Positions 252 through 33,873 of a stretch of 64,000 bases of DNA are shown here, in pieces (within the stretch, counting starts at the first letter, position 1; each line of letters opens with the position of its first letter). The DNA is from Thermoanaerobaculia bacterium (GTDB lineage: Bacteria > Acidobacteriota > Thermoanaerobaculia > Multivoradales > UBA5704), in contig DASVEF010000370.1 in the NCBI GenBank assembly GCA_036380715.1, positions 7,727 through 71,726 on the forward strand, given 5' to 3'. The position numbers were made by a program, and so were the translations under genes. The notes under the pieces are model-generated. The model had not been told where the DNA came from, did no database searches, and saw nothing but the letters and a program-made list of their open reading frames with translations.

Positions 252-1082
252 TCAAACCGTCCCCCTCGGCCCCACCGCCCCCTTGTGGAGGATCGCCTCC
301 ATCTCGTGCTCGAAGCCGCCGGTCTCGATCGGGCAGTGGATCCCACACTCCTTGGGCGCGTTCGTCTCCCACCACCAGCGGCCGGCGCGTAGGTCCTCGC
401 CCGGCAGCGTGGCCCGGGTGCACGGGGCGCAGCCGATGCTCGTGAAGCCCTTCTCATAGAGGGGATGGACCGGCACGTCGTTCGCCCGGATGTAGTCCCA
501 GACCTCGTCGATCGTCCAGTCCGCCAGCGGGCTGATCTTGGCCAGGCCGCCGTGCTCGTGGTCGACCTCGACCTTGCGGATGTTGGCCCGGCTCGCCCAC
601 TGATCGCGGCGCAGGCCCGTGATCCAGGCGTCGAGCCCCTCGAGCGCCTGCCGGACTGGCTCCACTTTGCGCACGTTGCAGCACAGCAGGCGGGCGGGCA
701 CCGACCTCTGGAAGAGGTTGGGACCGTGCCGCAGCACCATCTCCTGCACCTGCCGGGCGTCCGGGGAGTAGACCTCGATCTTCATGCCGTAGCGATCACG
801 GACGGTCTCCAGGATGTCGTACGTCTCCTGGGGCAGGCGCCCGGTGTCCACCGTGAACACCCTCACCTGCGGATCGATCCGCCACGCCATGTCGAGGATG
901 GCCATGCCCTCGGCCTGGAAGCTGGTACAGATCGCGGCGTTCTGTCCCCAGCGCTCCAGCGCCCAGGCGAGCACCCCCTGGGGCTCCGCGAAGTCGAGCT
1001 CCACGGCCAGTTGCCCGGCCTCGAACTCGTCGAGCAGGTCACGGTCGTCTTCCTTTGGTTGAAAGGCAAGTCCCCGGTTCAT
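252..1082 (-). CDS. cysH: adenylyl-sulfate / phosphoadenylyl-sulfate reductase (thioredoxin-dependent), CysH family
   Basis: 276-aa ORF with CysH-type PP-loop fold, a CC...CxxC cysteine cluster (LLCCNV, CAPC) and a C-terminal KECGIH motif (ECGLH-like). Start overlaps the sir stop by 4 nt (ATGA). Confidence 0.9.
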   Translation of the reverse strand: MNRGLAFQPKEDDRDLLDEFEAGQLAVELDFAEPQGVLAWALERWGQNAAICTSFQAEGMAILDMAWRIDPQVRVFTVDTGRLPQETYDILETVRDRYGMKIEVYSPDARQVQEMVLRHGPNLFQRSVPARLLCCNVRKVEPVRQALEGLDAWITGLRRDQWASRANIRKVEVDHEHGGLAKISPLADWTIDEVWDYIRANDVPVHPLYEKGFTSIGCAPCTRATLPGEDLRAGRWWWETNAPKECGIHCPIETGGFEHEMEAILHKGAVGPRGTV

Positions 1083-2758
1083 GTGCGGACCTCATTCCGG
1101 CCAACGCCGGCGTCAAAAAAAGATGCATGCGCTGGATCGCCCTGGGCGATCGCGACGAGATCCTCGTCCGTGCTGCGGACGAAGAATTGTTGCGGCGTCT
1201 CTCCGCCGCTCCGCGCCCCGAGATAGGCGCGGAACAGCCGTTCGATGATGAGATGGACCTCGCTGCCCGGCACCCGCTTGAGGACCGGCCGGCCGATGGC
1301 CGCGCCGCTCGCCAGGCCGCCGCGCAGGAAGAGGTCGTAGCCCTGGATGCGCTCCCCGTTCGGGCCGCGCTCCCGCAGAGTGGTGCCCTGGAGCCCGATG
1401 TCGCCGATCCAGTGGTGGGCGCAGGCGTGCGGGCAGCCGTCGAGGTTGAGGCGCAGGCCCGAAGCCTCCTCGCCGAAGACCCGCTCCAGGTGCTCCACGA
1501 TCTCCCGCAGCCGCCCCTTGGTCTCGGCGACCGTGTAGTTGCAGAACGGATCGCCGGTGCAGGCGATGCTGGAGCTGCGCAGGGCGTTGACCTGGATCGG
1601 GAACCCCAGCTCCCCCACCTTCCGGACCACCTCGTCCACCCGCTCCCCGGGGATGTGGCTGAGGATGAAGTTCTGCCGGCGGGTCAGGCGGACCTCGCCG
1701 CCCCAGGACTCCGCGAGGTCGGCGACGGCCTTCATGGCGGCGCCGTCCATCAGCCCCAGATAGGCCGGGAACCCGGCGTAGAAGAGGCCGTCCTGGCTCT
1801 GCGGATGGATGCCGGTGTGGTCGTGCTCCTCGGCCGGTGGCGGAGGCGCCGCGCCGTCCCGGAGCCGCCGCCCCAGCTTCTCCTCGACGCGCGCCCGGAG
1901 AGCCTCGGCCCCGAGGTCGTGCACCATGAACTTCAGCCGCGCCCGGGTGCGCGACAGCCGGTACCTCAGATCCTCCCGCCAGACGTCCACGAGAGCCCGC
2001 AGCACCTCCAGCCCTTCCTCCAGCGGCACCCACACCTTCAGGTCGTCGGCCAGCCGGGGCCAGGTCGAGAGCCCGCCGCCGACCGTCACCGCGAAGCCCG
2101 GCCGCCCCTCCACCACAGAGCCGAGGAGGGCGATGCAGTGGATTTCCGGCGCGTTGCACTGGTGGGGGCAGGCCGCGATGGTGATCTTGTGCTTGCGCGG
2201 CAGGTCGGAGTACTCGCGGTTGCGCACGAAGAAGTCCGACGCCTCCTCCAGGAAAGGCTGGACCGCGAACAGCTCCTCCCGCGAGATCCCGGCGACCGGG
2301 CAGCCCGTAATGTTGCGCACGTTGTCGCCGCAGGCCCCGGCGGTGGTCATGCCCGCCGCGGCCACGGTCTCCAGCACCTCGGGGATCTTCTCCAGCTCGA
2401 GCCAGTGGATCTGGATGTTCTGGCGGGTGGTCAGCTCGCCGAAGCCCCGGCCGTAGCGCTCGGAGATCTCGCCCATCGTGCGCAGCTTCCCCGGGGTCAG
2501 CACGCCGCCCGGCACCTTGACCCGCATCATGAAATGGCCGAGCTTGGGCTTGTCGTGGTAGAGGCCGTACCACTGGAGCCGGACGAAGTCCTCCTCCGGC
2601 ACCGCCTCATACCCCGTCGTGATCATGGACGGCAGGTCGTGGATGACGTCGAGCCCCCCCTTCTCGTGCTTGAGGCGCTCGACGAAGTTCCGCTTGCGCA
2701 CCAGCTCCCAGGTGACTTCGCCCTCGGTGGCTGTTCGACTGCTGCCGGTACCGCTCAT
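1079..2758 (-). CDS. sir: sulfite reductase hemoprotein (ferredoxin/NADPH-type, CysI/Sir family; siroheme + 4Fe-4S)
   Basis: 559-aa ORF with nitrite/sulfite reductase ferredoxin-like and hemoprotein domains. Cys cluster motifs CGDNVRNITGCP, CPHQCNA and LDGCPHACAHHWIGDIG. Same operon as cysH. Confidence 0.9.
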   Translation of the reverse strand: MSGTGSSRTATEGEVTWELVRKRNFVERLKHEKGGLDVIHDLPSMITTGYEAVPEEDFVRLQWYGLYHDKPKLGHFMMRVKVPGGVLTPGKLRTMGEISERYGRGFGELTTRQNIQIHWLELEKIPEVLETVAAAGMTTAGACGDNVRNITGCPVAGISREELFAVQPFLEEASDFFVRNREYSDLPRKHKITIAACPHQCNAPEIHCIALLGSVVEGRPGFAVTVGGGLSTWPRLADDLKVWVPLEEGLEVLRALVDVWREDLRYRLSRTRARLKFMVHDLGAEALRARVEEKLGRRLRDGAAPPPPAEEHDHTGIHPQSQDGLFYAGFPAYLGLMDGAAMKAVADLAESWGGEVRLTRRQNFILSHIPGERVDEVVRKVGELGFPIQVNALRSSSIACTGDPFCNYTVAETKGRLREIVEHLERVFGEEASGLRLNLDGCPHACAHHWIGDIGLQGTTLRERGPNGERIQGYDLFLRGGLASGAAIGRPVLKRVPGSEVHLIIERLFRAYLGARSGGETPQQFFVRSTDEDLVAIAQGDPAHASFFDAGVGRNEVRT

Positions 2759-3204
2759 TAATAGACTCCTGGACCGAAACGTTGCGGAGGGCCTGGGCGA
2801 GCGCAGCTCCGCAGGGTAGACCCCTCCTGGGCTCTCGCCGTCGGGCGGAGCGGGTCACGCTAGCTTTGGCTTCGGGTCGGACCTTGGCGGATGCGAACGG
2901 CTACGCCGCTCACACCCGCTTGCTACATATGCAGCCAGGGGTGGGCTGGAACGTGACGGCGGCCATGGCACCGGGCGGAGGTGAGATCAGCGGTGACATT
3001 GGAGATGACTTTAGTCACCTTTACCTCGTTTGTCCAGTCCCCCTGCGGGTTTGCGGGTGACGGAGAGGTGTCAGACCGGTAACAAGGCTACACTTTCCCT
3101 CAGGAGGAAACCGTATGGCCGTGCCGGGTGCGAGAAAGAGGGTCGAAGGGGTCGTCCTGACCGGCTGGGGCTCGTAGCGCAGCCCCCACCGTTAACATAG
3201 GGCC

Positions 3205-4590
3205 ATGATTTCCGCGGCAGGCGAGGGCCCCCGGTTCTGGGACCAGCTCCTCCAGTTCATCGAGGAGGGGCGGGTCGTCCCCATCGTCGGCCCCGATCTC
3301 CTCGTCGCCGATGTCGAGGGACGCTCTGTCCTTCTCTACTCCTTTCTGGCGGAGCGGCTGGCGGAGTATCTGGAGGTCCCCGGGGGCGATCTCCCCGCGG
3401 CGGGCGCGCTGCACGAAGTAGCCTGCCGCTTCCTGAGCCAGGGCGGCCAGATCGAGGACATCTACTCCGGCCTGAAGCGGGTCTTCCCCTCCAGGGAGGC
3501 CTTTCCCATCCCGCAGCCGCTCCTCCAGCTCGCCGGGATCCGGCCGTTCAAGCTGTTCCTGACCACCACGTTCGACCCTCTTCTCCAGCAGGCCCTCGAC
3601 GAGTCTCGCTTTGGCGGGCAGCCGAGGACGCGGGTCTTCGCCTACTCCCCGAACCAGGTGCAGGACCTCGAACAGTCGGTGGACGAAATGGACCGGCCGG
3701 CCGTCTTCCACCTCTTCGGCCGCCTCTCGGCCATGCCGGAGTACGCGGTGACCGACGAGGACACCCTGGAGCTCGTCCATGCCCTGCAGTCCGAGACCCG
3801 GCGCCCCGGCCGGCTCTTCGACGAGCTCGACCGCCGGCAGCTCCTCCTGCTCGGCGGCGGCTTCTCCGACTGGCTGGCCCGCTTCTTCCTGCGCGCCCCC
3901 CGCAGCGAGCGCCTGTGGCTGGTGCGCGGCCGGACGGACATCGTCGCCGATGCCCGCATGCGCGACGACCTTTCCCTGGTCGCCTTTCTCAAGCACTTCA
4001 GCTCCCGCACCCGGATCGCCTCGCAGGGCGCGGTGGAATTCGTGGACGAGCTGCACCGGCGCTGGATCGAGCGGCACCCTCCCCAGGCCGCCGCGGCCGC
4101 GGAGCCGGCGCGCGCGCACGGACCGCTCGATATGCAGCCTGGAGCAGTCTTCTTGAGCTACGCCAGCGAGGACCGTCCCGTGGTGGAGGCGCTCAAGGAG
4201 GAGCTGGAGCGCGCCGGCCTGGACGTCTGGTTCGACCGCGACGCCCTGGAAGGGGGAGACGAGTACGAGAAGAAGATCCGGCGCAACATCGAGAGCTGCT
4301 CGCTGTTCGTCCCCGTGCTCTCGCACCATACCCTGACCTCGCGGCGGCGTTTCTTCCGCCTGGAATGGGACTGGGCCGAGAGGGTCGCCGTCCAGGCTCC
4401 TCCGAACCTGCGCTACATCGTGCCGCTGGCCGTCGACGACGTGGCGCCGGACGACCCGGCGCTGCCGGACCGGTTCAAGCGCCTGCACTGGGAGCGGCTG
4501 GCGCCGGGTCAACCCAATCCCGGCGTGGTCGAAACGCTGAAGCGGTGCTTCCGCGAGTATCAGCGGGCCACGGCCGAGGCCTCCAGGTGA
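3205..4590 (+). CDS. two-domain protein: N-terminal SIR2_2-like (DHS-like NAD-binding fold, non-canonical catalytic positions) + C-terminal TIR domain
   Basis: 461 aa. The C-terminus (VFLSYASEDRPVVEALKEELERAGLDVWFDRDALEGGDEYEKKIRRNIESCSLFVPVLSHH...RLEWDWAE) has the canonical TIR pattern. The N-terminal about 300 aa resembles the SIR2_2 layout (VVPIVGPDLL ~ GAGxS loop; FLTTTFDPLLQQAL ~ ITTNYDxLLE; VFHLFGRL ~ KLHGS) but with substitutions. Followed 13 nt later by the STAND NTPase gene. Confidence 0.75.
   Translation: MISAAGEGPRFWDQLLQFIEEGRVVPIVGPDLLVADVEGRSVLLYSFLAERLAEYLEVPGGDLPAAGALHEVACRFLSQGGQIEDIYSGLKRVFPSREAFPIPQPLLQLAGIRPFKLFLTTTFDPLLQQALDESRFGGQPRTRVFAYSPNQVQDLEQSVDEMDRPAVFHLFGRLSAMPEYAVTDEDTLELVHALQSETRRPGRLFDELDRRQLLLLGGGFSDWLARFFLRAPRSERLWLVRGRTDIVADARMRDDLSLVAFLKHFSSRTRIASQGAVEFVDELHRRWIERHPPQAAAAAEPARAHGPLDMQPGAVFLSYASEDRPVVEALKEELERAGLDVWFDRDALEGGDEYEKKIRRNIESCSLFVPVLSHHTLTSRRRFFRLEWDWAERVAVQAPPNLRYIVPLAVDDVAPDDPALPDRFKRLHWERLAPGQPNPGVVETLKRCFREYQRATAEASR
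4141..4530 (+). other. TIR domain region of the 3205-4590 product
   Basis: FLSYAxED...DVWFD...I...S...VPVLS TIR signature (residues about 313-440). Candidate catalytic Glu in RLEWDWAE. Confidence 0.7.
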
Positions 4591-4603
4591 CCGAGGCTTC
4601 CTG

Positions 4604-7600
4604 ATGGCGGAGCCCCTCCCTCGCGAAGCCGATCCCGGCACGGTCGACGCTGACAATCCCTGGCCCGGGCTGGCCTCTTTCCGGGAGGCGGACCGAGAGC
4701 TCTTCTACGGCCGGGAGACGGAGACCCAGGAGGTGCTGCGGCTGGCGCTGCGCGAGCGGCTGACGGTCCTCTTCGGGCTCTCCGGCCTCGGCAAGACCTC
4801 GCTGCTCCGGGCCGGCCTTTTCCCCCGGCTCCGCGAGCAGAACGTCCTGCCGGTCTACATCCGGCTGGACTTCTCTGAAGGCGGAGGCGCCCGCCGCACC
4901 CTGACCGATCAGATCCGGCAGGCGATCGCCCGCGAGGCCAGGGCCGCCGGCATCGAGGCTCCACCCCTCCCCGAGTCGGAGACGCTCTGGGAGTCCCTGC
5001 ACCGGCAGGAGGCGGAATTCTGGAGCCCGCGCAACCGCATCGTCACGCCGCTCCTCGTCTTCGACCAGTTCGAAGAGGTCTTCACCCTCGGACAGCGGAA
5101 TCCCTCCCGGGCTCGGGAGACCGAGGCGTTCCTCGCCGAGCTGGCGGACCTCTGCGAAGGGTCGCCGCCGGCGAGCGTCCGCGAGCGGCTGGAGGCGGAC
5201 CCGTCCGCGGCCCGCGAGCTCTCCTTCACCCGCCACGCCTACAAGATCCTCCTCAGCCTGCGCGAGGATTTCCTGCCCGAGCTGGAGGGGCTGCGCGGTC
5301 GCATCCGCTCGATCGTCCACAACCGCTTCCGCCTGCGGCGGATGAACGGCGACAACGCCCTGAAAGTAATCACCCAGGCGGGCGGCCACCTGGTCGAGCC
5401 GGACGTCCCCGAGCGGGTGGTCCGCTTCGTCGCCGGCAAGGAGAGCGACGGCGCGGTCCCGCTGGCCGGGCTGGAGATCGAGCCGGCGCTCCTCAGCGTC
5501 GTCTGCCGGGAGCTGAACAACAAGCGCCGCGCCCAGGGGCTGTCCCGCATCACCGCCGGCCTGGTGAGCGGCAACCGCGACGAGATCCTCTCCGAGCTCT
5601 ACGAAAGGAGCGTCGAGGACCTGGGACCGGAGGTCCGCGCCTTCGTCGAGGAGCGCCTGCTGACCCGGTCCGGCTTCCGCGACACGGTGGCCCTGGAGAA
5701 CGCCCTCGAGCTGCCCGGCGTCACCCGCGAGGCCCTGGACAGGCTGACCGACCGCCGGCTCCTGCGCATCGAGGACCGCGGCGGCATGCAGCGCCTGGAG
5801 CTGACCCACGACGTGCTGACCGGGGTCATCCGCAAGAGCCGCGACCTCCGCCGGGAGCGAGAGGCCGAGAGAAAGCTCCGGCGCAGTTGGCTGATCATCG
5901 CGCTCCTCGCCCTCGTCCTGGTCGGCGTTTTCACCCTCGCCGCTTGGGCACTCTGGGCAGAAAGGCGGGCGGAGCAGGCCCTGGCGGCCTCGGACGCCGG
6001 GAGGGCCTTGAGCCTTCGGGACAGCCGGCCCTCTCACGCCCTCGCCTACCTGGCCCGGGCGCTGCGCGCAGACCCGGACAACATCCCGGCGCAGAGCGTC
6101 CTCAGCGACCTCCTCCTCGGCAGAGCCTGGCCGAGGCCCGTCGCCGAGCTGCGGCTCGCGGACGCCGATTCGGTCCACCTCAGCGAGGATGGACGGTTCT
6201 TCGCCGCGGTCTCAGAGGACTGGACGGTCCGCGTCTGGGACACCCGGACGCTCCAGAAGACGGGAACGGTCCGCCCGGAAGACGCCGCCGAATCCCTCGA
6301 ATTGAGCCGGGATGGCCGGCGCATGCTGATCCTCTCCCCCGCCTTGGCGCGGCTCTGGGACGTTCGCACCGGCCAGCCTCTCGGACGCTTTCCGCTGAGA
6401 GAAGAGAGATCCCACGCGCTGCTCAGCCCGGACGGCCAGTGGATCGCCCTGGTTTACGGCGGCCACACCCTCGTCCTTCGCCACATCGACACGGGCAAGG
6501 AGCGCGAGATAAGGCTCCCCGTAGATCCCGCCATGATCCCCTACGGCGGCGGCTTCGAGGGTTTCGGGTTCAGCCCCGATAGCCGGAGGTTCTTCGCCAC
6601 CGACTCGCTGGCGGTCCTTCTCTGGGACGTCGGGAGCGGCCGCTCGATTCCCGGGCCGCCGGCAGGAATGATCCTTCACGTGGTTTTCAGCCCCGACAGC
6701 CGCCGCCTCCTGGTCACGGGGAACGAGCTGGTGGTTTGGGACACCGTCGTTGGCGGACCGTCCGAAGGGACCTTCGGTGGCGACGCGAACCGAGCATGGC
6801 TCAGCCCAAGAGGCGGGAGGCTTGCGACCTATCATGCGCCCGAAGCCGCGCTCCGGATCTGGAGCATCCGCGATCCGCGGGGACCCTTGACGATCTCGAA
6901 GCCCAACCTGCTCCACGCTCAATTCAGCCACGACGGCCAGCTCCTCCTGACCACGTCCCAGGAGGGGGTGGAGCTGTGGGACGCCGACACCGGCCATCCG
7001 GTCAGCCAACCGCTCTGCGATTGCCTGCAAGGCCGCTTCCTCGAAGGCACCCGCCAGGTCGTCACGAGCGACGACAGCGGCATCCTCAGGGTCTGGAGCT
7101 CTGAGCCCGCGCGGACCGGCACGGAGCTCCTCTACGATTCTGAGAGCCTGTACCCTGTCTTTAGCCAGGACGGGAGCCGCCTCGCGTTGCAATCGCGGGA
7201 TGGCGTGGTCCATTTCTGGGACACCACCGCCGTCCGGTCCGTGGAATCCCCGGTCCGCAACGTCGATCTCCGGCTCAGCGCGGACGGCCGCTTTCTGCTG
7301 GAGCAGCGGAAAAGCACGGTACAGCTCTGGGATGCCCGCACCGGCCGTCGGACCGGACAGCCTTTGACACTGCCCGGCGACCGATACCAACTCCGCCCGG
7401 ACAAGGATCTCGATTCCGAGAGGGAGGTCCTGGGCATCCGGAGGGGCTCCACAGTCCAGCTCTGGAGCTTCGCCACAGGCCGGCAGGTGGGAGAGGTCCA
7501 ACAGAGCCAGGAGGTCACGGACCTCGCGTTCAGCCCTGGCGGCGACCGGCTCGTCACCGTCTCCCCGCAAGGCGTGATCCGCACCTGGGACTCGCGGACG

Positions 7601-8461
7601 GGCGAGCCGCTCGACCTCGTCTACCACGAGAGCCCCGTCGTCTCCTTCGACCTCAGCCAGGATGGCGAGCGGATTGCGACGGGCACCCGGAGGGGGCTCG
7701 CAAGGATCTGGGACCTCCGGTCCGGCGAGCTGCTCGTCGGTCCTCTCCGCCACCGGTATCCGGTGAGCTTCGTCAAATTCCAGCCCGCAGGCCGCCTGCT
7801 CCTGACCCGTGCGCAGAACACTCTCAGGCTCTGGGACACCCGGACGGGGCAGCCCACCGGCGGAGCGCTCGATCAAAAGGGGGGCATCGGGTTCGCTCAG
7901 CTCAGCCCGGACGGCTCCCGCATCCTGGTCCAGACGATCGGCGAGTCCCCCCTCCTGCTGGACGCCCAGACGGGGCAGCTCCTCGTCAGAGCTTCTCTCC
8001 CTGTTCCCGACTCGACTTTTTACGAGGCGCGGCTCAGCCCGACCGGCGAGCTCCTGTGGGTTGCCCTTCTCGACCGGGTCCACGTCTTCGCCGTCCCCCT
8101 CTTTCCGAAGAAGGACCGGGAGCTCCTCGCCCGCTGGGCCGAGGCCGTCGGCGGCTGGACCCTCGACGGGGAAGGCCGGCTGGTGGAAATTCGCGATCAG
8201 CTCGCGCGCCTCAACGGCTTGCGCCGGGAAACCGCGAAAGCTCCTCTCGGCCAGCTTGGGGTTGCCTCCCTGATCCGCTGGTTCCTCTCCGACCCGCGGA
8301 CGCGCACGATGTCCCCCGTCCTGGACCTCACCGTCGAGCAATCCATCCGCCGCCATCTCGAAGCCGGAGACTGGCGCGGAGCCGCGGAAGCCTTCCCCGG
8401 CCACCCGTTGCTCCTCGAGCATCGGCCCCCGCCGGTTCCCATTACTCCGGACGAGCCCTGA
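4604..8461 (+). CDS. STAND-class P-loop NTPase (nSTAND/NACHT-like) with internal transmembrane helix and about 14 WD40 repeats (two predicted 7-bladed propellers)
   Basis: 1285 aa. N-terminal NPWPGLASFREADRELFYGRE motif typical of cyanobacterial-type STAND-WD40 NTPases. Walker A GLSGLGKTSLL, Walker B LLVFDQFEEVF. Hydrophobic helix SWLIIALLALVLVGVFTLAAWALW flanked by RKLRRS / ERRAEQ. Then 14 WD-type repeats (VRVWDTRT, RLWDVRTG, LLWDVGSG, VVWDTVVG, ELWDADTG, HFWDTTAV, QLWDARTG, RTWDSRTG, RIWDLRSG, RLWDTRTG ...). Confidence 0.85.
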   Translation: MAEPLPREADPGTVDADNPWPGLASFREADRELFYGRETETQEVLRLALRERLTVLFGLSGLGKTSLLRAGLFPRLREQNVLPVYIRLDFSEGGGARRTLTDQIRQAIAREARAAGIEAPPLPESETLWESLHRQEAEFWSPRNRIVTPLLVFDQFEEVFTLGQRNPSRARETEAFLAELADLCEGSPPASVRERLEADPSAARELSFTRHAYKILLSLREDFLPELEGLRGRIRSIVHNRFRLRRMNGDNALKVITQAGGHLVEPDVPERVVRFVAGKESDGAVPLAGLEIEPALLSVVCRELNNKRRAQGLSRITAGLVSGNRDEILSELYERSVEDLGPEVRAFVEERLLTRSGFRDTVALENALELPGVTREALDRLTDRRLLRIEDRGGMQRLELTHDVLTGVIRKSRDLRREREAERKLRRSWLIIALLALVLVGVFTLAAWALWAERRAEQALAASDAGRALSLRDSRPSHALAYLARALRADPDNIPAQSVLSDLLLGRAWPRPVAELRLADADSVHLSEDGRFFAAVSEDWTVRVWDTRTLQKTGTVRPEDAAESLELSRDGRRMLILSPALARLWDVRTGQPLGRFPLREERSHALLSPDGQWIALVYGGHTLVLRHIDTGKEREIRLPVDPAMIPYGGGFEGFGFSPDSRRFFATDSLAVLLWDVGSGRSIPGPPAGMILHVVFSPDSRRLLVTGNELVVWDTVVGGPSEGTFGGDANRAWLSPRGGRLATYHAPEAALRIWSIRDPRGPLTISKPNLLHAQFSHDGQLLLTTSQEGVELWDADTGHPVSQPLCDCLQGRFLEGTRQVVTSDDSGILRVWSSEPARTGTELLYDSESLYPVFSQDGSRLALQSRDGVVHFWDTTAVRSVESPVRNVDLRLSADGRFLLEQRKSTVQLWDARTGRRTGQPLTLPGDRYQLRPDKDLDSEREVLGIRRGSTVQLWSFATGRQVGEVQQSQEVTDLAFSPGGDRLVTVSPQGVIRTWDSRTGEPLDLVYHESPVVSFDLSQDGERIATGTRRGLARIWDLRSGELLVGPLRHRYPVSFVKFQPAGRLLLTRAQNTLRLWDTRTGQPTGGALDQKGGIGFAQLSPDGSRILVQTIGESPLLLDAQTGQLLVRASLPVPDSTFYEARLSPTGELLWVALLDRVHVFAVPLFPKKDRELLARWAEAVGGWTLDGEGRLVEIRDQLARLNGLRRETAKAPLGQLGVASLIRWFLSDPRTRTMSPVLDLTVEQSIRRHLEAGDWRGAAEAFPGHPLLLEHRPPPVPITPDEP
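5887..5958 (+). other. predicted single transmembrane helix inside the STAND NTPase (between NTPase/helical module and WD40 region)
   Basis: 24 consecutive hydrophobic residues with positive-inside flank (RKLRRS). Prediction by eye only. Confidence 0.55.
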
Positions 8462-8541
8462 CGCGGTTCTCGAATCCCGGTGCTAGACTTGTCATCGAAC
8501 CCCATGCCCGGGTGGCCTTCCGCGGGCGAGGAGGATATCGT

Positions 8542-9288
8542 ATGGGCGCAATTCCACTGCAACGCGATATCGACTATCCGGAATCCGACGGACAGCCCAT
8601 GGCAGAGACCGCCCTCCACCGCCGAGAGATGGTGGACCTCACCGCCGCGCTGGACCATTGGTACCTCGACGCGGCGGATGTGGCGGTGGAGAGCAATCTC
8701 TTCCTCTACTACGTCGAAGGCAACCCGCGGGCGGTGGTCTCCCCCGATGTCTTTGTTGCGCTCGGCGTGCCCAAGAGGGAGCGCAGGATCTACAAGCTTT
8801 GGGAGGAAGGCCGCGCCCCGTCCATGGTCATCGAGGTGACCTCGCTCTCGACCAAGGACGAGGACCTCTACGGCAAGAAGAGCTGTTACGAGAGGCTCGG
8901 CGTGCCGGAGTACTTCCTGCACGACCCTTGCGGGGAGTATCTGAGCCCGCCGCTCCTGGGCTATCGCCTGGTGCGTGGCCAATACCGCCTGATGAAGCCG
9001 GCAGCCGACGGCTCGCTGATCAGCAAGGTCACGGGGCTGACGCTCCAGCCCGAGGGGCAGAGGTTGCGTCTGGTGGATACTGCCACTGGAAAGCTGCTGT
9101 CGTGGGTCGCAGAGTCCCAGGCGGCCGAAGACCGGGAGGAGGAGGCGCAGCGGGCATGGCAGGAGGCGGAAGTACGAGCGGCTCAGGCCGAAGCCCGGGC
9201 AGCCCAGGAAGCCCAGGCGCGGCGGCAGGCCGAGGAGGAGTTGGCCCGTCTGCGCCGCGAGCTCGCCAAATGGGATTCGGCCGGCTGA
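8542..9288 (+). CDS. Uma2-family (DUF820) PD-(D/E)XK-like endonuclease with C-terminal coiled-coil
   Basis: 248 aa from ATG with a GAGGA RBS. Uma2 motifs PDVFVALGVP...MVIEVTSLST...DLYGKKSCYERLGVPEY. C-terminal Ala/Glu/Arg-rich heptad-like tail. Confidence 0.8.
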   Translation: MGAIPLQRDIDYPESDGQPMAETALHRREMVDLTAALDHWYLDAADVAVESNLFLYYVEGNPRAVVSPDVFVALGVPKRERRIYKLWEEGRAPSMVIEVTSLSTKDEDLYGKKSCYERLGVPEYFLHDPCGEYLSPPLLGYRLVRGQYRLMKPAADGSLISKVTGLTLQPEGQRLRLVDTATGKLLSWVAESQAAEDREEEAQRAWQEAEVRAAQAEARAAQEAQARRQAEEELARLRRELAKWDSAG

Positions 9289-9368
9289 CCTTCTTCCCCA
9301 TTCCTCTTCGATAGACTCCCACCCGGCCCTCCAAGCCGGGGGCTCTTTAGCTGATCACCGAGCCCCCG

Positions 9369-10985
9369 ATGGCCGACCGTCCCTCATCCCCCTGGACCCC
9401 ACTGAGGCAGCCGCTCTACCGGTCGTTGTGGATCGCCGCCGTGGCCTCCAACATCGGCACCTGGCTGCAGAGCGTCGGGGCGTCGTGGATGATGACCACG
9501 CTGTCGGCTTCGGCCACGATGGTGGCGCTGGTGCAGGCGGCGACCAGCCTTCCCATGTTCCTGCTGTCGCTGCCCGCCGGGGCTCTCGCCGACGTGCTCG
9601 ACCGCCGGCGGCTGCTCCTGTTCACCGAGATCTGGATGGCCCTCAGCGCGGCAGGGCTCGGACTGCTGACCCTCGCCGGGGCGGCCGGCCCGTGGACGCT
9701 GCTGGTCTTCACCTTCCTGCTCGGGCTGGGGACCGCGCTCACCGCTCCCGCCTGGCAGGCGATCGTCCCCGAGATCGTGCCGCGGGAGGACCTGCCCGCC
9801 GCCATCACTCTCCAGAGCATCGGATTCAACATCGCCCGCGCCATCGGCCCGGCCATCGGCGGCCTACTCGTGGCGGCGACGGGGCCGGCGGTGACTTTCC
9901 TGCTCAACGCCGCGTCGTTCCTCGGCGTGCTGCTGGTGGTCTACCGCTGGAAGCGCCCGGCCATGGAGTCGGTCCTCCCGGGCGAGCGCATCCTCGGAGC
10001 GATGAGCACCGGACTGCGCTACGTGCGCCACGCGCCCGAGGTCCTCGCCGTGATCGCGCGGGGGAGCACGTTCGTCCTCTGCGCCAGCTCCCTGTGGGCG
10101 CTGCTGCCGGTGGTCGCCAGCACCGAGCTGAGGCAGGGACCGGCGGGGTACGGCCTGCTCCTCGCCTCTCTCGGCGTCGGAGCGGTCTCGGGCGCGATGG
10201 TCCTGCCGCGGCTGCGCCGGGGAGGAGAGGGCTCGATGGACGGCATCGTGGCCGTGGCGACCCTGGTCTTCGCGGGCGCCACGGTCGCCCTCGGATCGCT
10301 GCGCAGCTTTCCCCTTCTCTGCCTGGCGCTGGTCTTCGCGGGCGGCGCCTGGCTCTGCCTGCTCTCCAGCCTGAACGTGGCGATCCAGACGGTGGTCCCC
10401 TCCTGGGTGCGCGGCCGGGCCTTGTCGGTCTACATGCTGATCTTCTTCGGCGGCCTCGCGGGCGGCAGCGCGCTCTGGGGAGCGGTGGCCGACCACGCGG
10501 GCACCTCCCGCGCGCTCTGGATCTCCGCGGCCGGCATGATCGCCGGCCTCGCCGCCACCTGGCGCATCCACCTGCGCTCGGGCGAAGGGCTCAACCTGGC
10601 CCCGTCGCGGCAATGGCCCGCACCGCTGGCCAGCCACGACCTGGAGCTCGACCGCGGGCCGGTCCTGGTGTCCATCCGCTACCAGATCGATCCCGAGAAG
10701 GCTTCCGAGTTCGCGGCGGCCATGCGGGAGCTGCGCCGCATCCGCCTGCGCGACGGCGCCCTGCAATGGGGTCTCTTCACCGTCGCCGAAACTCCGGGCG
10801 CCTACGCCGAGGTCTTCCTCGTCCGCTCCTGGATCGAGCATCTGCGCCAGCACGAGCGGGTCACCGTCGCCGACGAGGAGATCCGGCACCGCGCCGGCTC
10901 TTTCCACGTCGGCGAAGAGCCTCCCGTGGTCCGGCACCTCATCGCCGAGCCCATGATCCGGGTTAGAATTCCTGGGGCAGATTGA
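9369..10985 (+). CDS. MFS transporter (EntS/YbdA-like) fused to a C-terminal ABM-like (antibiotic biosynthesis monooxygenase / Dabb) domain
   Basis: 538 aa. About 12 TM helices, with MFS motif LADVLDRRRLLL after TM2. The C-terminal about 125 aa (PVLVSIRYQIDPEKASEFAAAMRELRRIRLRDGALQWGLFTVAETPGAYAEVFLVRSWIEHLRQHERVTVAD) fits the ferredoxin-like ABM pattern. Confidence 0.85.
   Translation: MADRPSSPWTPLRQPLYRSLWIAAVASNIGTWLQSVGASWMMTTLSASATMVALVQAATSLPMFLLSLPAGALADVLDRRRLLLFTEIWMALSAAGLGLLTLAGAAGPWTLLVFTFLLGLGTALTAPAWQAIVPEIVPREDLPAAITLQSIGFNIARAIGPAIGGLLVAATGPAVTFLLNAASFLGVLLVVYRWKRPAMESVLPGERILGAMSTGLRYVRHAPEVLAVIARGSTFVLCASSLWALLPVVASTELRQGPAGYGLLLASLGVGAVSGAMVLPRLRRGGEGSMDGIVAVATLVFAGATVALGSLRSFPLLCLALVFAGGAWLCLLSSLNVAIQTVVPSWVRGRALSVYMLIFFGGLAGGSALWGAVADHAGTSRALWISAAGMIAGLAATWRIHLRSGEGLNLAPSRQWPAPLASHDLELDRGPVLVSIRYQIDPEKASEFAAAMRELRRIRLRDGALQWGLFTVAETPGAYAEVFLVRSWIEHLRQHERVTVADEEIRHRAGSFHVGEEPPVVRHLIAEPMIRVRIPGAD
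10596..10985 (+). other. ABM-like soluble domain at the C-terminus of the MFS transporter
   Basis: Pattern hhhhxhxYxhxPExxxxFxxxxxxL...G...xxLhxx...PxxYxEhxxWxSxExHxxH. Confidence 0.5.
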
Positions 10986-11018: not shown

Positions 11019-11369
11019 TTTATATACTCCGGCCGAGAGCTTGTATAGACCCGCCCCTTGGAACCGCTTCAGGAACCGCAGGTTTATATAGGGAGAGGGG
11101 TGTACCTATATAGACTGTCCGTCTCCCTATATAGACGCGCAGCTTTCTTATATAGACCGGAGCCTGCGCAAAGGCGGGGGACCTCCCGTTCAGACTGTCC
11201 GAACCCTCTCCGAAAGCTCTCCGGATCGCCGCCCTATATAAAAAGAGCGCTCATCTATATAGATCCTGAGCTCCGAGACGCTTCCCCGCCGCCTCTCTAT
11301 ATATTTTGACGGCTCCCCCATATGAACCGGCCACCTTCCTATATAATCAGGCTGCAAAAGTATATAGAG
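11019..11369. repeat. AT-rich intergenic array: about 12 copies of a C(C/T)TATATAG(A) palindromic core positioned at 21-bp multiples
   Basis: Cores end near 11027, 11048, 11091, 11113, 11134, 11155, 11241, 11262, 11304, 11346 and 11367 (gaps 21, 43, 22, 21, 21, 86, 21, 42, 42, 21), with a degenerate copy near 11324. Lies in a 70% GC background between the MFS gene and vapB. Spurious ORFs across it encode YI-rich junk. Confidence 0.8.
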
Positions 11370-11419
11370 TGGCCGTCCGGAAACCTTGGGCGGGCCTTTC
11401 AAAAGGGAGGAGGAGACGC

Positions 11420-11629
11420 ATGCTCACCAGTATGGATCTGGACGAGGAGCTGTTCAAGAAGGCGTGGAATCTTTCGAGCCAGCGGACCAAGAAGGGCGTC
11501 GTGGAAGAGGCGTTGCGCATCTACGTCCGCCTCCACGAGCAGGCCCAGGTGCGTAGTCTGCGGGGCAAGCTGGCGTGGCTGGGCGATCTCGACCAGCAGA
11601 GGAAGCGGCGCCGTGCAAGCTCTCGTTGA
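11420..11629 (+). CDS. vapB: type II antitoxin, VapB-like (DUF2191-type)
   Basis: 69 aa starting MLTSMDLDEELFKKAWNLSSQRTKKGVVEEALRIYVR. Strong RBS GGGAGGAGGAG. Its 3' end overlaps the downstream PIN toxin gene. Confidence 0.7.
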   Translation: MLTSMDLDEELFKKAWNLSSQRTKKGVVEEALRIYVRLHEQAQVRSLRGKLAWLGDLDQQRKRRRASSR

Positions 11630-12005
11630 CGCTTCGGTCTGGATCGACTATTTCACCGGCGAGGCCACGCCGCAGACCGACCTCCTGGACTCCCTGCTCG
11701 GGAAGGCGGCCCTCACCGTGGCCGACCTGACGCTCGCCGAGGTCCTCTACGGCATTCCGGACGAGCGCAGCCGGCGCCTGGCGGCCGACGCGCTGACCAA
11801 GTTCTGGCTGGTCGAGGTCCGCGGGATCGACCTGGCCCAGAAGAGCGCGGTCAACTATCACACCCTGCGCGTCCGCGGCATCGAGGTCACGACCACGGAG
11901 TGCGAGATCGCCACGTTCTGCCTGGAGAACGGCTTCTCTCTCCTCCACTCCAGCCCGGGCTACGAGCCGTTCGAGACGTACCTGGGGCTCAAGGGGGTGC
12001 GGTAA
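11613..12005 (+). CDS. vapC: PIN-domain ribonuclease toxin VapC
   Basis: GTG start. PIN signature LVDASVWIDYF...LAADALTKFWLVEVRGIDL...HTLRVRGIEVTTTECEIATFCLENGFSLLH. Confidence 0.85.
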   Translation: MQALVDASVWIDYFTGEATPQTDLLDSLLGKAALTVADLTLAEVLYGIPDERSRRLAADALTKFWLVEVRGIDLAQKSAVNYHTLRVRGIEVTTTECEIATFCLENGFSLLHSSPGYEPFETYLGLKGVR

Positions 12006-12594: not shown

Positions 12595-14100
12595 ATGATG
12601 AAGCTGTACCCGCGTCTCCTCTGCGTTCTCGCAGCCTGCCTCCTGTCCGCCCCGGTCTCCGCAGCGCCGCAGGGCCATGCCGCCGCTCCCATCGTCAACG
12701 GGAACCTCGAGGGAAACCTGCCGTCCGTGGTCGCCGTGTTCGTGGACAGCGAGCTTTGCACGGGTACCCTCATCGGCTGCCAGACCGTGCTCACCGCGGC
12801 GCACTGCATCTGCAGCGATCAGCTCACGGGATCAGCCTGCGCACAGACCCCCGGCCTCCTCGACCCCTCGCGGGTCGCGGTCTTCTCGCAGCACGCCGGG
12901 GTTCTGGACGTCGCGAGCGTGGCGGTGCATCCGGACTATCACTTCCAGGTCCGGGGCGACCTCGCGATCCTGCGCCTGGCAACTCCGGTGGCGGGAATCG
13001 CGCCGACTCCCCTCAACCTCACCGGGCGGGTGGCCCCCGGCGTCCAGGGAGTCATCGCCGGGTTCGGGCGATCGAGCAGGACGGCCGACGACTTCGGGCT
13101 GAAGCGCTCCGGAAGAGTGACGACCGCCGCCTGCACGCACGCGCCGGCCGCCACCCACCTCTGCTGGAACTTCGAAGCTCCCATCGGTCCGGTCGGGCTG
13201 GACAGCACCGCCTGCCAGGGCGACTCCGGCGGTCCGCTGCTGGTCGAAACGGGCGGCGTCGCCCGCCTCGCCGGAGTCACGTCCGGAGACGAGCCCGGAA
13301 CGTGCGCGCCGCCCGACCAGGTCTTCGCCGCCGATGTCTATGTGGACCGCGCCTGGATCCTGGAGCGGGCGGGAGCCGACGCCACGGCCACGAGCTGCGG
13401 GACGCTCCCGCCGGCCGGCTCCGCCGAGGCTCCGGTGGTCGCTGTGAACGGGGACCTCGCGCGGACAGACTCCGGGGACCGCCATGTCCTCCAGGTCCCG
13501 CCGGGCGCGGACCTGCTGCGCGTGGCGCTCAACGGCGACTTCGGCACCGCGAACGCCAACTTCCAGCTCTACGTCAAGCCGGGCGCGCCGCCGACGCCAG
13601 AGGACTTCCTCTGCGAGAGCGAGATGCCGGGGCCCTATGAATTTTGTGAATTGCCGTCGCCGGTCGCCGGGGAGTGGCACGTGCTCGTCCACCGCCAGGG
13701 CGGCTCGGGGGCGTACCAGCTCACCGCGACCACGTTCGGGGTCTCTTCGTCGAGTTGCGTGCCTGACGCCACGACGCTGTGCCTGAACAACGGCCGCTTC
13801 CGCGTCCGCGCCACCTGGCGGCTCCGAAACGGCCAATCCGGAGCCGGCAACATGATCCCCCTGACCTCCGACACCGGCTACTTCTGGTTCTTCGACCCCG
13901 CCAACGTGGAGGTCGTCGTCAAGGTCCTCAACGCCTGCGCCCGCGGGAACTACTGGGTCTTCGCCAGCGGCCTGACCAACGTCCAGGTTACCCTCACCGT
14001 GACCGACACCCAGAGCGGCGTGACCCGGACTTACCAGAACCCGCAGGGGACGCCCTTCCAGCCGATCCAGGACACCGGGGCGTTTCCGACCTGTCCGTGA
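12595..14100 (+). CDS. secreted trypsin-like serine protease (S1 family) with pre-peptidase C-terminal (PPC) domain and extra C-terminal beta-rich domain
   Basis: Signal peptide. IVNG start of the mature trypsin fold. Catalytic triad contexts TAAHC, DLAILRL and GDSGGPL. PPC-like segment LQVPPGADLLRVALNGDFGTANANFQLYVKPGAPP...GEWHVLVHRQGGSGAYQLT. Confidence 0.85.
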   Translation: MMKLYPRLLCVLAACLLSAPVSAAPQGHAAAPIVNGNLEGNLPSVVAVFVDSELCTGTLIGCQTVLTAAHCICSDQLTGSACAQTPGLLDPSRVAVFSQHAGVLDVASVAVHPDYHFQVRGDLAILRLATPVAGIAPTPLNLTGRVAPGVQGVIAGFGRSSRTADDFGLKRSGRVTTAACTHAPAATHLCWNFEAPIGPVGLDSTACQGDSGGPLLVETGGVARLAGVTSGDEPGTCAPPDQVFAADVYVDRAWILERAGADATATSCGTLPPAGSAEAPVVAVNGDLARTDSGDRHVLQVPPGADLLRVALNGDFGTANANFQLYVKPGAPPTPEDFLCESEMPGPYEFCELPSPVAGEWHVLVHRQGGSGAYQLTATTFGVSSSSCVPDATTLCLNNGRFRVRATWRLRNGQSGAGNMIPLTSDTGYFWFFDPANVEVVVKVLNACARGNYWVFASGLTNVQVTLTVTDTQSGVTRTYQNPQGTPFQPIQDTGAFPTCP

Positions 14101-17305: not shown

Positions 17306-17478
17306 GCCGTCATCCGGACAGCCGGGATCTCCGTAGCTAGAGGTGGAGCAGAAACCCCCGGGACATCGGCAATGCGCTCCAGGCCTCCGTGTACGGTGGA
17401 TTGGGAGAGGTTCGTCTTGGAAGCACGGAAGAGCCGGGGCGCCGGGTGTCCCCCAACCAGATAAAACGGAGAACCGCC

Positions 17479-31331: not shown

Positions 31332-31450
31332 GGGCGTTGAGATCTCCTTTCCATTTCCTCTCTCACAACTCTAAGCAAGCGCCCTGCCATGGAAAATTCC
31401 ACAGGAGAGCGGCTGCCGGAGACCTCGATTACGCGCCAATTTGGCACGCC

Positions 31451-33055: not shown

Positions 33056-33690
33056 GCCTGAAAGCTCCCTTCTTCGCGTGCTCGGACCGCCACTGTGAGC
33101 GTGGGTCCGACCCCCACCACCGTGACCAGCGACCCGCGCGGCACTTCCCGGCCGCCGGCCTCCCGGGCCGGAGAGGGGAACCGCTGCCCGTCGATCATCA
33201 CCACCGCCTCCCCCACTCCTCCAGCCGGGATCGGCACCGTCACCTCGGCCGGCGCCCCCTGGAGGCGCGACAGGCGGATGACGCTGGAGGCGCGCGAGCC
33301 GCTCGCCAGCTTCCAGCCGACCCAGGTCACCCCGTAGGCCGTGGCCAGCGCCGCCGGGAGAGCCACGAGCAGGCTCGCGGCGTCGCCGGCGCCGAAGCCG
33401 TGCTGGGCGATCAGGCCGTAGCCGCCGACGCAGGCGAGCAGCGTGGCGATCGCCAGGGGGGAGAAGAACGGGAAGTGGAAATCCCCGGGACCGGCGGCGT
33501 CCGTCGAGGTAGTGCCGTGGCCCTGCCCGTCGAGGCCGTAGTGGCTCTCGGCCGTGGCGTGGCCCGCGTCGTGGCCCCCCGCTCCGCCGTCGGCCCCTCC
33601 GTCCGAGAAGTCGATATGCCCCAGCAGGGCCGAGACCAGGACGTAGCCGCAACCGAGGACGGCGAAGGCGATGTACATCAGGGTGAGCAC
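33052..33690 (-). CDS. NfeD-like membrane protein (partner of flotillin)
   Basis: 212 aa. N-terminal TM helices plus C-terminal OB-fold-like domain (VIRLSRLQGAPAEVTVPIPAGGVGEAVVMIDGQRF). Confidence 0.75.
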   Translation of the reverse strand: MLTLMYIAFAVLGCGYVLVSALLGHIDFSDGGADGGAGGHDAGHATAESHYGLDGQGHGTTSTDAAGPGDFHFPFFSPLAIATLLACVGGYGLIAQHGFGAGDAASLLVALPAALATAYGVTWVGWKLASGSRASSVIRLSRLQGAPAEVTVPIPAGGVGEAVVMIDGQRFPSPAREAGGREVPRGSLVTVVGVGPTLTVAVRAREEGSFQA

Positions 33691-33775
33691 AGGCTCCTCC
33701 TGTCAAAGATGACGCGTTGACGATGGCGCGAGGCCTGCCTGCGATTCTATCCGCAATATGCCCGTCTCCCGCAAC

Positions 33776-33804
33776 TTGCAGTTGCGGCCCCGCGGCCCTA
33801 TAAT
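33776..33804 (+). promoter_or_regulatory. sigma70-like promoter of the rimP-nusA-infB operon (TTGCAG-17 bp-TATAAT)
   Basis: Hexamers read directly: -35 TTGCAG, 17-bp spacer, -10 TATAAT. About 114 nt upstream of rimP ATG. Confidence 0.6.
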
Positions 33805-33845
33805 GCATCGGGCCAGCTTGCCCTGACCGGCAACGGTCGGTAAGG

Positions 33846-33873
33846 AGTGGGCATCTTCTGCCCACTCTTTTTG
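33846..33873 (+). terminator. leader hairpin + U-tract (intrinsic-terminator-like attenuator) in the rimP-nusA-infB 5' leader
   Basis: AGTGGGCA-TCTTC-TGCCCACT followed by CTTTTTGTTGT, between the predicted promoter and rimP start. Confidence 0.6.

Follow-up and report, generated by a model that had tools for sequence, protein, structure and literature searches.

The locus comprises two adjacent genes on the forward strand of the 64-kb window (the whole stretch of DNA analysed here), the first coding for a soluble SIR2-like-TIR protein and the second for a large STAND receptor that is divided by a single predicted membrane-spanning helix (Table 1). The stop codon of the upstream gene lies 13 nt before the receptor start, and an SD-like GAGG is found ~8 nt upstream of the receptor ATG. 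A promoter and terminator scan across positions 2700-9400 yielded nothing meaningful, and no second copy of the receptor was found within the window.

Table 1. Coordinates of the two genes and of the features of the receptor (nt, position in the window; aa, position in the respective protein).
Feature	Position (nt)	Strand	Protein coordinates and basis
Partner gene, predicted cytosolic SIR2-like-TIR protein	3205-4590	+	461 aa; SIR2-like (aa 117-234), TIR (aa 315-432); Pfam TIR_2, SIR2_2
Receptor gene	4604-8461	+	1285 aa; nSTAND1, TM, linker, tandem WD40 propellers, helical tail
nSTAND1 STAND NTPase module (NBD, helical domain, winged helix)	4658-5872	+	aa 19-423; PF20703, E 2.6e-33
Walker A, GLSGLGKTS	4775-4801	+	aa 58-66
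Walker B, LLVFDQFEE	5051-5077	+	aa 150-158
Charged juxtamembrane helix, predicted cytoplasmic side	5813-5884	+	aa 404-427; ends in conserved RKLRRS motif; AF2 continuous helix
Single predicted transmembrane helix	5885-5959	+	aa 428-452; hydrophobicity and family conservation
Helical linker after the TM helix	5960-6121	+	aa 453-506; AF2 helices and consensus of 34 homologs
Tandem WD40 beta-propellers, predicted extracytoplasmic sensor	6125-8092	+	aa 508-1163; ~15-16 blades; Pfam, repeats, AF2, Foldseek
C-terminal helical tail domain	8108-8419	+	aa 1169-1272; AF2 and consensus among WD40-class relatives

The receptor is a STAND NTPase of the nSTAND1 clade with intact P-loop motifs, in which nucleotide-binding, helical and winged-helix domains are followed by a sensor. 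Its match to the Pfam nSTAND1 model scores 116.6 bits (cut-off 27.1) and covers profile positions 1-358 of 379, and the residues G61, G63, K64, S66, D154, Q155, E157, and E158 are invariant in a 57-sequence comparison. The AF2 model of the NTPase part (pLDDT 88.7) contains a beta-hairpin winged helix at aa 361-400 and is matched in Foldseek by Cdc6/Orc1, the archaeal STAND-like ATPases 2qen/2fna, and NLRP2; a PDB sequence search with the nSTAND1 and TM region found no relative.

A Conserved Helix Separates NTPase and Sensor

The first-pass annotation of this DNA had proposed a transmembrane helix between the NTPase and the WD40 region, within positions 5850-5970. Such a helix is indeed present: the translation of 4604-8461 (+) contains EAERKLRRSWLIIALLALVLVGVFTLAAWALWAERRAEQ exactly as quoted there, and SWLII...WALW, which corresponds to aa 428-451 (nt 5885-5956), lies in the longest run of the receptor that is free of D, E, K, and R (25 residues, aa 428-452). 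The Kyte-Doolittle mean of the helix is 2.76 in a 19-residue window, and a Hessa-type scale, summed over aa 430-448, gives an apparent insertion free energy of -3.75, compared to +6.3 for the next-best window of the receptor. This segment is the only one in the receptor with a negative insertion energy, and none of 2000 shuffles of the receptor protein matched the observed value; no signal peptide-like segment was seen at the N-terminus in the same hydrophobicity and insertion-energy scan. With 25 uncharged residues and a strongly negative insertion energy, the segment does not resemble the buried amphipathic helix that the annotation had considered as an alternative. An AF2 model of aa 400-1285 (pLDDT 90, pTM 0.87) shows an unbroken helix from aa 402 to 471 that passes through the hydrophobic stretch, and in both AF2 models the helix is continuous from the winged helix through the predicted membrane segment. 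A sub-threshold NCBIfam match of aa 403-472 to an “anti-sigma factor” extends over the hydrophobic helix and the residues on either side, and was therefore dismissed as a TM-region match.

Members of this nSTAND1 clade normally possess the helix. A search with the NTPase alone retrieved 2605 clusters (50% identity) at E<=1e-30, and almost all of the best 150 of these are TM-split, with the helix at the same place in 142 of them. It is likewise present in 115 of the 120 best word-indexed homologs and in 72 of 75 assessable genomic loci, which come from Acidobacteriota, Proteobacteria, Verrucomicrobiota, Planctomycetota, Gemmatimonadota, and Cyanobacteria. What is kept in these relatives is hydrophobicity, not sequence, over an uncharged span with a median of 23 aa (142 relatives), and an (R)RKLRRSR motif recurs N-terminal to the helix among homologs. 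This family survey rules out an idiosyncratic insertion of one genome: orthologs carry the helix, the absence of which the first-pass annotation had regarded as evidence against its proposal. The same annotation had considered a membrane split unusual for NLR-like proteins, which is true in general, but not for this nSTAND1 clade, where it is a family rule.

A few close relatives (P0137, P0178) lack the helix yet retain WD40 repeats, so cytosolic versions exist. The hydrophobic stretch of the receptor could be something other than a membrane-spanning segment, e.g., a buried oligomerisation helix in a protein that is wholly cytosolic like classical NLRs. We regard this as highly improbable, given that the insertion energy of the 25 uncharged residues is far below that of other segments and of shuffled sequences, and that hydrophobicity and length are conserved rather than sequence. 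Moreover, the family has a strong positive-inside bias, and the CHASE2-containing relative described below, with its three additional TM helices, fits only a true first TM helix.

The charge bias is evident both in the receptor, in which 8 K/R residues were counted by hand among the 16 positions preceding the helix and 3 among the 16 following it, and across 142 relatives, with flank averages for K+R of 6.2 (N side) and 3.5 (C side). The N side exceeds the C side in 129 of these 142 relatives, and the reverse is the case in 2. In the homolog P0054, the equivalent helix and three further TM helices enclose a CHASE2 domain (443-753), which is well established as a sensor of extracytoplasmic type. 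An N-in/C-out orientation is thus supported by the family-wide positive-inside bias, by the requirement of the ATPase for cytosolic ATP together with the lack of a signal peptide in the receptor, and by the position of CHASE2 in P0054. From these features, we infer that the receptor is inserted into the membrane in this orientation, with the ATPase inside the cell and the double beta-propeller sensor most likely outside the inner membrane, in agreement with the topology that had conditionally been suggested for it at first pass, i.e., N-in with a cytoplasmic NTPase and extracytoplasmic propellers.

The Region Beyond the Helix Is Variable

The C-terminal side of the receptor matches Pfam WD40 (PF00400) with 86 bits (cut-off 27) and, in addition, many propeller models. 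Repeat parsing recovers about 16 sequence repeats, and the AF2 model has ~60 strands across aa 508-1163 (pLDDT near 90); sequence repeats and strand count together indicate two propellers with ~15-16 blades. The top Foldseek matches of the sensor model are the tandem propellers 2ymu, Apaf-1 (3sfz), and Utp/Pwp2 (best E 5.7e-33). The AF2 linker has two helices, which form a hairpin at aa 476-506 (H77-90 and H95-107 in model numbering; offset +399) with the conserved motif ALAYLA.A.R.DP in the consensus of 34 homologs. Where the first-pass annotation had described a TPR-like linker and 14 WD blades, a two-helix linker followed by WD40 repeats is therefore found, but with a somewhat larger number of blades. 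The tail is conserved among WD40-class relatives (LA.LAEAVGG ... RWFLADP..RTISP) and aa 1169-1272 have no match in Pfam; a word-index search with aa 1125-1285 for such a tail joined to different N-terminal parts (e.g., kinases, signal peptides) returned one short and uninformative match.

Among the relatives, the regions that follow the TM helix fall into at least seven unrelated classes: WD40 (97), two unknown small domains (64 and 24), TPR (10), FGE-sulfatase (7), DM9 (4), and CHASE2 (1). Within the WD40 class, identity averages 61% in the NTPase and 30% in the sensor (29 relatives). At a syntenic locus (L013), identity is 78-79% for the flanking genes, 72% for the NTPase, and 64% for the SIR2-TIR protein, compared to 29% for the sensor. 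Judged by these sequence comparisons, the region beyond the helix is either swapped or fast-diverging.

This pattern bears on the possibility that the helix merely anchors a STAND protein that senses in the cytosol, with the C-terminal region serving as a periplasmic scaffold or localisation device and the trigger being cytoplasmic, e.g., at sites of phage DNA entry. A precedent might be seen in Avs5 (SIR2-nSTAND3), which works at membrane-associated phage entry sites via a hydrophobic localisation segment, and the conservation of the juxtamembrane cytoplasmic helix with its RRKLRRSR motif would be compatible with such an arrangement. However, variability and domain swapping are entirely confined to the part beyond the helix, and the cytoplasmic part has no variable region besides the NTPase. 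A rapidly diverging repeat domain of ligand-binding type, 830 aa in length, would be a costly anchor, and relatives carry bona fide sensor domains (CHASE2, lectin folds) at this position, which makes a mere anchoring function improbable.

The SIR2-Like-TIR Partner

A homolog of the SIR2-like-TIR gene is located directly upstream of the STAND gene in all loci compared (79/79). This constant proximity of the receptor gene to a TIR-domain gene suggests a widespread, hitherto undescribed outside-in immune receptor. The partner gene is absent from the first-pass annotation. No hydrophobic segment was detected in the partner, the best insertion-energy window being +7.97.

The TIR domain of the partner matches Pfam TIR_2 (1.9e-21, 77.2 bits; cut-off 28), has relatives in the PDB (PdTIR, 3h16; AbTIR, 8g83), and is the only part of the protein with PADLOC matches. 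In the W-x-x-x-E motif, which we take to mark the position of the TIR catalytic glutamate, W388 and E392 of the partner (W+4, the canonical position) align with WPQKE of PdTIR. Across the TIR domains of 72 relatives, position 392 is variable, position 393 is D or E in 49, and E387 is nearly invariant, so that most proteins of the family have an acidic residue at W+4 or W+5.

The SIR2-like domain matches SIR2_2 (PF13289; 9.6e-10, 39.1 bits; cut-off 24.5; aa 117-234) and displays TTTFD where SIR2 NADases have TTNYD. Position 122 is T, S, C, or A, but never N (0/72 homologs), and His169 is found in 56 of the 72. Since a PDB profile search with the SIR2-like region found no relative, the lack of the catalytic Asn is read from motif correspondence, which was itself derived from the start of the Pfam match and not from a structure alignment. 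Lacking this Asn, the domain may be non-catalytic.

A Putative Outside-In Signalling Cassette

Taken together, the two genes probably represent a conflict (immune-type) cassette, in which a periplasm-facing, single-pass STAND receptor is combined with a soluble SIR2-like-TIR effector. For such a cassette, we infer the following route from ligand sensing through oligomerisation and TIR activation to the outcome. The product of the second gene would reside in the inner membrane with its nSTAND1 ATPase and winged helix in the cytoplasm, a rigid helix leading from the winged helix straight across the membrane, and linker, double WD40 propeller, and tail facing the periplasm; the product of the first gene would remain soluble. 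The trigger could be a ligand in the envelope or periplasm, such as a component of a phage or a competitor, or a product of envelope damage, which would be bound by the fast-evolving propeller. Binding might relieve autoinhibition and/or cluster the receptors, and clustering is the assumed route by which the signal would be carried across one helix. On the inner face of the membrane, the nSTAND1 modules could then form an NTP-dependent oligomer that recruits or activates the SIR2-like-TIR partner, the TIR domain of which would consume NAD+ or produce a nucleotide signal, leading to growth arrest or death.

The same architecture and topology could also serve a non-immune transducer of envelope or environmental signals. 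The propeller would in this case sense a self or environmental cue (kin or cell-cell recognition, envelope stress, polysaccharide), and the SIR2-like-TIR protein would contribute to the regulation of physiology by producing or binding a nucleotide second messenger. The genomic setting is compatible with such a role: the cassette is chromosomal and has housekeeping neighbours (sulfite reductase, MFS transporter), the locus is syntenic in a related MAG, and no clear defence island surrounds the cassette within the window. Close relatives are missing from the phage and plasmid collections, with no match in phages and a best plasmid match of 33% identity on a Paraburkholderia megaplasmid, which leaves a mobile-element origin of the cassette unsupported, and the receptor matches no family among the PADLOC-DB v2 defence models. 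Lectin-like sensors (DM9, FGE/C-type-lectin fold) and CHASE2 in relatives would suit a transducer as well, and a SIR2-like domain without the catalytic Asn fits a binding role. However, replacement or divergence of the sensor is far faster than that of the NTPase and the flanking genes, and tandem copies of the cassette occur in some genomes (L004, L020, L062). Moreover, pairing with TIR and the earlier assignment of nSTAND1 to conflict systems are typical of immune receptors, and a non-immune role therefore seems rather unlikely.

More tentatively, the immune-type cassette may exemplify a large and phylogenetically broad class of bacterial trans-membrane NLR-like immune receptors, which would combine a TLR-like topology with NLR-like machinery and interchangeable sensors. 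Such receptors might detect ligands outside the cytoplasm, in the periplasm or envelope, before or independent of genome entry, and convert clustering across one helix into a cytosolic STAND oligomer and activation of a TIR effector. The bacterial STAND/NLR-like defences characterised to date (Avs, bNACHT) recognise phage proteins intracellularly. If the variable sensor is located across the inner membrane, bacteria would also survey the periplasm or envelope with NLR-type machinery, and the cassette would offer a tractable two-gene model of how a STAND ATPase can be activated from the other side of a membrane. A natural set of specificities for screening would be available in the modular sensors (WD40, TPR, lectin folds, CHASE2, unknown small domains), and the fusion of TIR to a SIR2-like domain that apparently lacks the catalytic Asn might represent an unexplored design of effector or adaptor.

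Relation to Known Systems

Conflict systems centred on nSTAND1 have been described by Kaur, Burroughs, Iyer and Aravind (eLife 2021, PMC8195603). According to the relevant parts of that paper, they possess variable “antigen-receptor-type” C-terminal domains, including FGE-sulfatase and repeats, associate with TIR and other NAD+-targeting effectors, and have EAD- or effector-fused N-termini, while C-terminal lectin-fold domains are proposed to recognise invader molecules. The receptor described here shares the NTPase family (PF20703) with these systems. However, those parts of the paper do not mention a membrane helix for that architecture (PMC8195603), whereas one TM helix separates NTPase and sensor in nearly all members of the present family; in further contrast to the systems as presented there, the receptor has no EAD, and the putative effector is encoded on its own, as a SIR2-like-TIR protein.

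Bacterial NACHT/STAND proteins with TM regions have already been listed among bNACHT proteins (Kibby et al., 10.1101/2022.07.19.500537) and as “transmembrane STAND ATPases” (PMC12642450), and a periplasmic CLec has been noted on a NACHT DGR target (PMC10907252). For such TM-bearing NLR-like NTPases, intramembrane or periplasmic signal recognition has been suggested (10.1101/2022.07.19.500537; PMC12642450; PMC10907252). These proteins belong to NACHT or other clades and have multiple TM regions, sometimes inside the NACHT module, or are mentioned in passing. In contrast, the present receptor belongs to the nSTAND1 clade and has a single predicted TM helix, placed directly behind the NTPase module with its winged helix, a large predicted extracytoplasmic domain, and an obligate SIR2-like-TIR neighbour. 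A description of an nSTAND1-TM-sensor plus SIR2-like-TIR cassette was not found in the literature, nor was one of SIR2-TIR or TIR-SIR2 proteins.

Avs5 (AVAST type 5), a SIR2-nSTAND3-TPR protein with an active SIR2 domain (N110 is catalytic in PaAvs5-1), is similar in that it combines a SIR2_2-type domain with a “novel STAND” NTPase and a repeat sensor, and in that it acts at the membrane (PMC12931631). However, Avs5 consists of a single soluble polypeptide, the sensor of which is cytosolic (PMC12931631), whereas the SIR2-like domain found here lacks the Asn by motif comparison, is fused to TIR, and is part of a separate protein, the sensor being located beyond a TM helix. Apaf-1 and bacterial Apaf-1-like WD40 STAND proteins (PMC13581612) likewise consist of a STAND NTPase followed by a tandem beta-propeller. 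Indeed, Apaf-1 structures (3sfz, 3j2t, 5juy) are among the best structural matches of the receptor sensor in Foldseek. Apaf-1, however, is a fully cytosolic member of the AP-ATPase clade that recruits a caspase via CARD, as opposed to a membrane-split nSTAND1 protein with a TIR partner.

With respect to topology, parallels are offered by Toll-like receptors and by bacterial receptor Ser/Thr kinases such as PknD, in which an extracytoplasmic repeat or propeller sensor is connected by one TM helix to a cytoplasmic signalling module. Toll-like receptors signal via TIR, and PknD has an extracellular beta-propeller. The likeness is one of analogy, as the signalling modules are not homologous: in the cassette, a STAND ATPase occupies the position of the signalling module, and TIR is provided by a separate protein.

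The Predicted Membrane Helix of the Receptor

By Pfam, aa 19-423 of the receptor are an nSTAND1 NTPase (PF20703, E 2.6e-33), and WD40/propeller models match at about aa 520-1110. Its Walker A (GLSGLGKTS) and Walker B (LLVFDQFEE) motifs are both intact and invariant among relatives; no PADLOC model matches the protein. As the first-pass annotation had claimed, a hydrophobic segment between NTPase and WD40 region is flanked by RKLRRS and ERRAEQ, the translation reading ...EAERKLRRS-WLIIALLALVLVGVFTLAAWALW-AERRAEQ.... With 25 aa, this is the longest uncharged stretch of the receptor, and its Kyte-Doolittle mean over a 19-mer is 2.76. The summed insertion energy is -3.75, compared to +6.3 for the next best stretch (Hessa-type scale), and 0 of 2000 shuffles of the protein match it. 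The receptor has no signal peptide, and the helix is its sole part able to insert into a membrane. A helix that does not enter the membrane was considered as an alternative; the insertion energy, the shuffles and the presence of a single such segment support a transmembrane helix.

Features of the window
Feature	Position (nt)	Strand	Description
PAPS reductase, sulfite reductase, DegP-like protease, SPFH/flotillin protein, IF-2	252-2758	-	housekeeping neighbours, first part
the same set, continued	29793-38923		housekeeping neighbours, second part
Partner	3205-4590	+	461 aa; SIR2_2 aa 117-234, TIR_2 aa 315-432 (Pfam)
Receptor	4604-8461	+	1285 aa
Hydrophobic run of receptor	5885-5959	+	aa 428-452
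Uma2-family ORF	8536-9288	+	putative restriction endonuclease
Small ORF	11058-11309	+
Small ORF	11306-11629	+
PIN-domain ORF	11322-12005	+	weak match, VapC-like
Trypsin-like protease	12595-14100	+
Ig-like domain protein	17389-21411	+	1340 aa

Two AlphaFold2 models, each built from homolog alignments, are both confident (aa 400-1285, the sensor model: pLDDT 90, pTM 0.87; aa 1-520, the N-terminal model: pLDDT 88.7). In both, a single unbroken helix runs from the winged-helix domain (about aa 404) through the hydrophobic stretch, ending at aa 471 in the sensor model and at aa 489 in the N-terminal model, where confidence is below 70 beyond about aa 470. The "TPR-like linker" of the first-pass annotation corresponds to the two-helix hairpin that comes next (aa 476-506). 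About 60 strands (aa 508-1163) and a helical tail (aa 1169-1272) follow; judging by the repeats in the sequence and the number of strands, there are about 15-16 blades, not the 14 WD blades counted previously. In Foldseek comparisons, the N-terminal module is an AAA+ domain of Orc/Cdc6-STAND type with winged helix, and the sensor is a tandem propeller matching 2ymu, Utp/Pwp2 and Apaf-1, whose own tandem propeller is structurally similar.

Conservation and Orientation

Conservation of the helix among homologs is borne out by three samples. Of the 120 best homologs of aa 1-520, 115 have a single hydrophobic segment at aa ~430-500; most of the remainder are truncated. When 1.84 billion representatives of 50%-identity clusters were searched with the NTPase only (aa 1-425), so that retrieval was unbiased by the helix, 31,556 matches passed E<=1e-3 and 2605 passed E<=1e-30. 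In 142 of the 150 best, the NTPase is directly followed by one stretch without charged residues, with a median length of 23 aa. At 79 cassette loci from six phyla, the helix lies 2-46 residues past the end of the NTPase alignment in 72 of 75 assessable ORFs. Hydrophobicity and length of the helix are conserved, its residues are not, and an RRKLRRSR-like motif is kept on the cytoplasmic flank. Two close relatives with NTPases ~55-62% identical, P0137 (1616 aa, with very canonical WD40 repeats) and P0178 (1181 aa), retain WD40 repeats without the helix; cytosolic and membrane-split versions thus coexist in the nSTAND1 clade.

The 15-residue flanks of the helix contain on average 6.2 K+R on the N side versus 3.5 on the C side (142 relatives), with the N side richer in 129 and poorer in 2. 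The ATPase must be cytosolic. In the relative P0054 (NTPase 61% identical), a CHASE2 domain (443-753) lies between the equivalent helix and a cluster of three more transmembrane helices. CHASE2 is an extracytoplasmic sensor domain, and a preceding helix with a following transmembrane cluster is its canonical arrangement. In other relatives, the helix is followed by an FGE-sulfatase domain of C-type-lectin fold, by DM9 lectin repeats or by TPRs. Because of the charge bias, the cytosolic ATPase, the CHASE2 domain and the post-helix domains of relatives, an N-in/C-out topology is predicted with high confidence, in line with the extracytoplasmic propellers proposed at first pass. As an alternative role of the helix, pure anchoring of a STAND protein that senses the cytosol was considered.

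The notion that a membrane-split NLR-like protein is exceptional was overstated. "Transmembrane STAND ATPases" are named briefly in a 2025 preprint (PMC12642450), and in a DGR study one CLec of a NACHT target was predicted to be periplasmic (PMC10907252), so membrane-associated bacterial STANDs are already a known idea. The available passages of the paper that defined nSTAND1 within STAND-FGS conflict systems (PMC8195603) do not mention a membrane helix, the main text of a 2026 STAND survey does not discuss a membrane-split topology, and the term "SIR2-TIR" or "TIR-SIR2" was not found in the literature searched. Within the searchable literature, the clade-wide single-pass nSTAND1 architecture with an obligate SIR2-like-TIR partner appears to be undescribed.

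Divergence of the Putative Sensor

Among 242 relatives, at least seven unrelated post-helix classes and many singletons occur, WD40 being the largest (97 members, including the receptor). The next commonest (64 and 24 members; relatives P0006-P0120) are two unrelated small domains of ~173 and 184 aa without a Pfam match, which are uncharacterised and putatively extracytoplasmic sensor domains. Across 29 WD40-class relatives, mean identity to the receptor is 61% for the NTPase and 30% for the sensor. Locus L013 is syntenic with the window (PAPS reductase, sulfite reductase, cassette, MFS_3), with identities of 78-79% for flanking genes, 72% for the NTPase, 64% for the partner and 29% for the sensor. 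An immune-type receptor would be expected to show this pattern, in which the signaling core stays constant and the binding domain diverges fast or is swapped; non-immune envelope signaling by the cassette was considered as an alternative.

The Partner and a Possible Mechanism

The end of the partner and the receptor ATG are 13 nt apart, a stretch that includes an SD-like GAGG; the partner has no hydrophobic segment. A homolog occupies the same position in 79/79 loci (E 1e-64 to 1e-255 where complete). Its TIR domain resembles PdTIR and AbTIR; the W-x-x-x-E position is Glu in the window, in a column that is variable in the family, most members having an acidic residue at +4 or +5. By motif correspondence only, the SIR2-like domain (within aa 117-175) reads TTTFD in place of the TTNYD-type motif of SIR2 NADases: T, S, C or A replaces the catalytic Asn in all 72 homologs, and the His is present in 56/72. 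In Avs5, the equivalent SIR2 Asn is catalytic (PMC12931631). A PDB profile search returned no structural relative of the SIR2-like region, which may be a non-catalytic adaptor or a ligand- or nucleotide-binding module fused to TIR.

What the analysis shows for the cassette is its anatomy and conservation, the charge bias around the helix, the gene pairing and the variability of the sensor; all functional steps are inferences. A periplasm-facing propeller would bind a ligand, upon which receptors would cluster or lose autoinhibition; oligomerisation of nSTAND1 modules at the membrane's inner face could then switch on the SIR2-like-TIR partner, leading to NAD+ consumption or signaling.

Tandem or duplicated cassettes occur at L004 (3-10935; two STAND genes enclosing two SIR2-TIR genes), L020 (3-8811) and L062 (5848-12794; a second, truncated STAND ending 23 aa past its transmembrane helix, and a TIR-only ORF). 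At L064 (4614-8034), a SIR2-TIR gene in three ORF fragments adjoins an nSTAND1 ORF without the helix; this cassette is degraded and probably a pseudogenised copy.

Genomic Setting

The window is chromosomal DNA of ~69% G+C, and its closest relatives are Thermoanaerobaculia and Holophagales MAGs (Acidobacteriota). The housekeeping neighbors point to a stretch of chromosome and not to a mobile island. The Uma2-family ORF just downstream of the cassette matches the PADLOC candidate system PDC-S03; L005 likewise has a homolog after its cassette, and none was found at the syntenic L013. The PIN-domain ORF and the small ORFs before it may form a toxin-antitoxin pair. Further downstream, the N-terminus of the trypsin-like protease is hydrophobic and resembles a signal peptide, and the protease also has a weak PPC match below threshold. 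The 1340-aa protein contains Ig-like domains (Big_7, NPCBM_assoc and TIG); both products are probably cell-surface or secreted.
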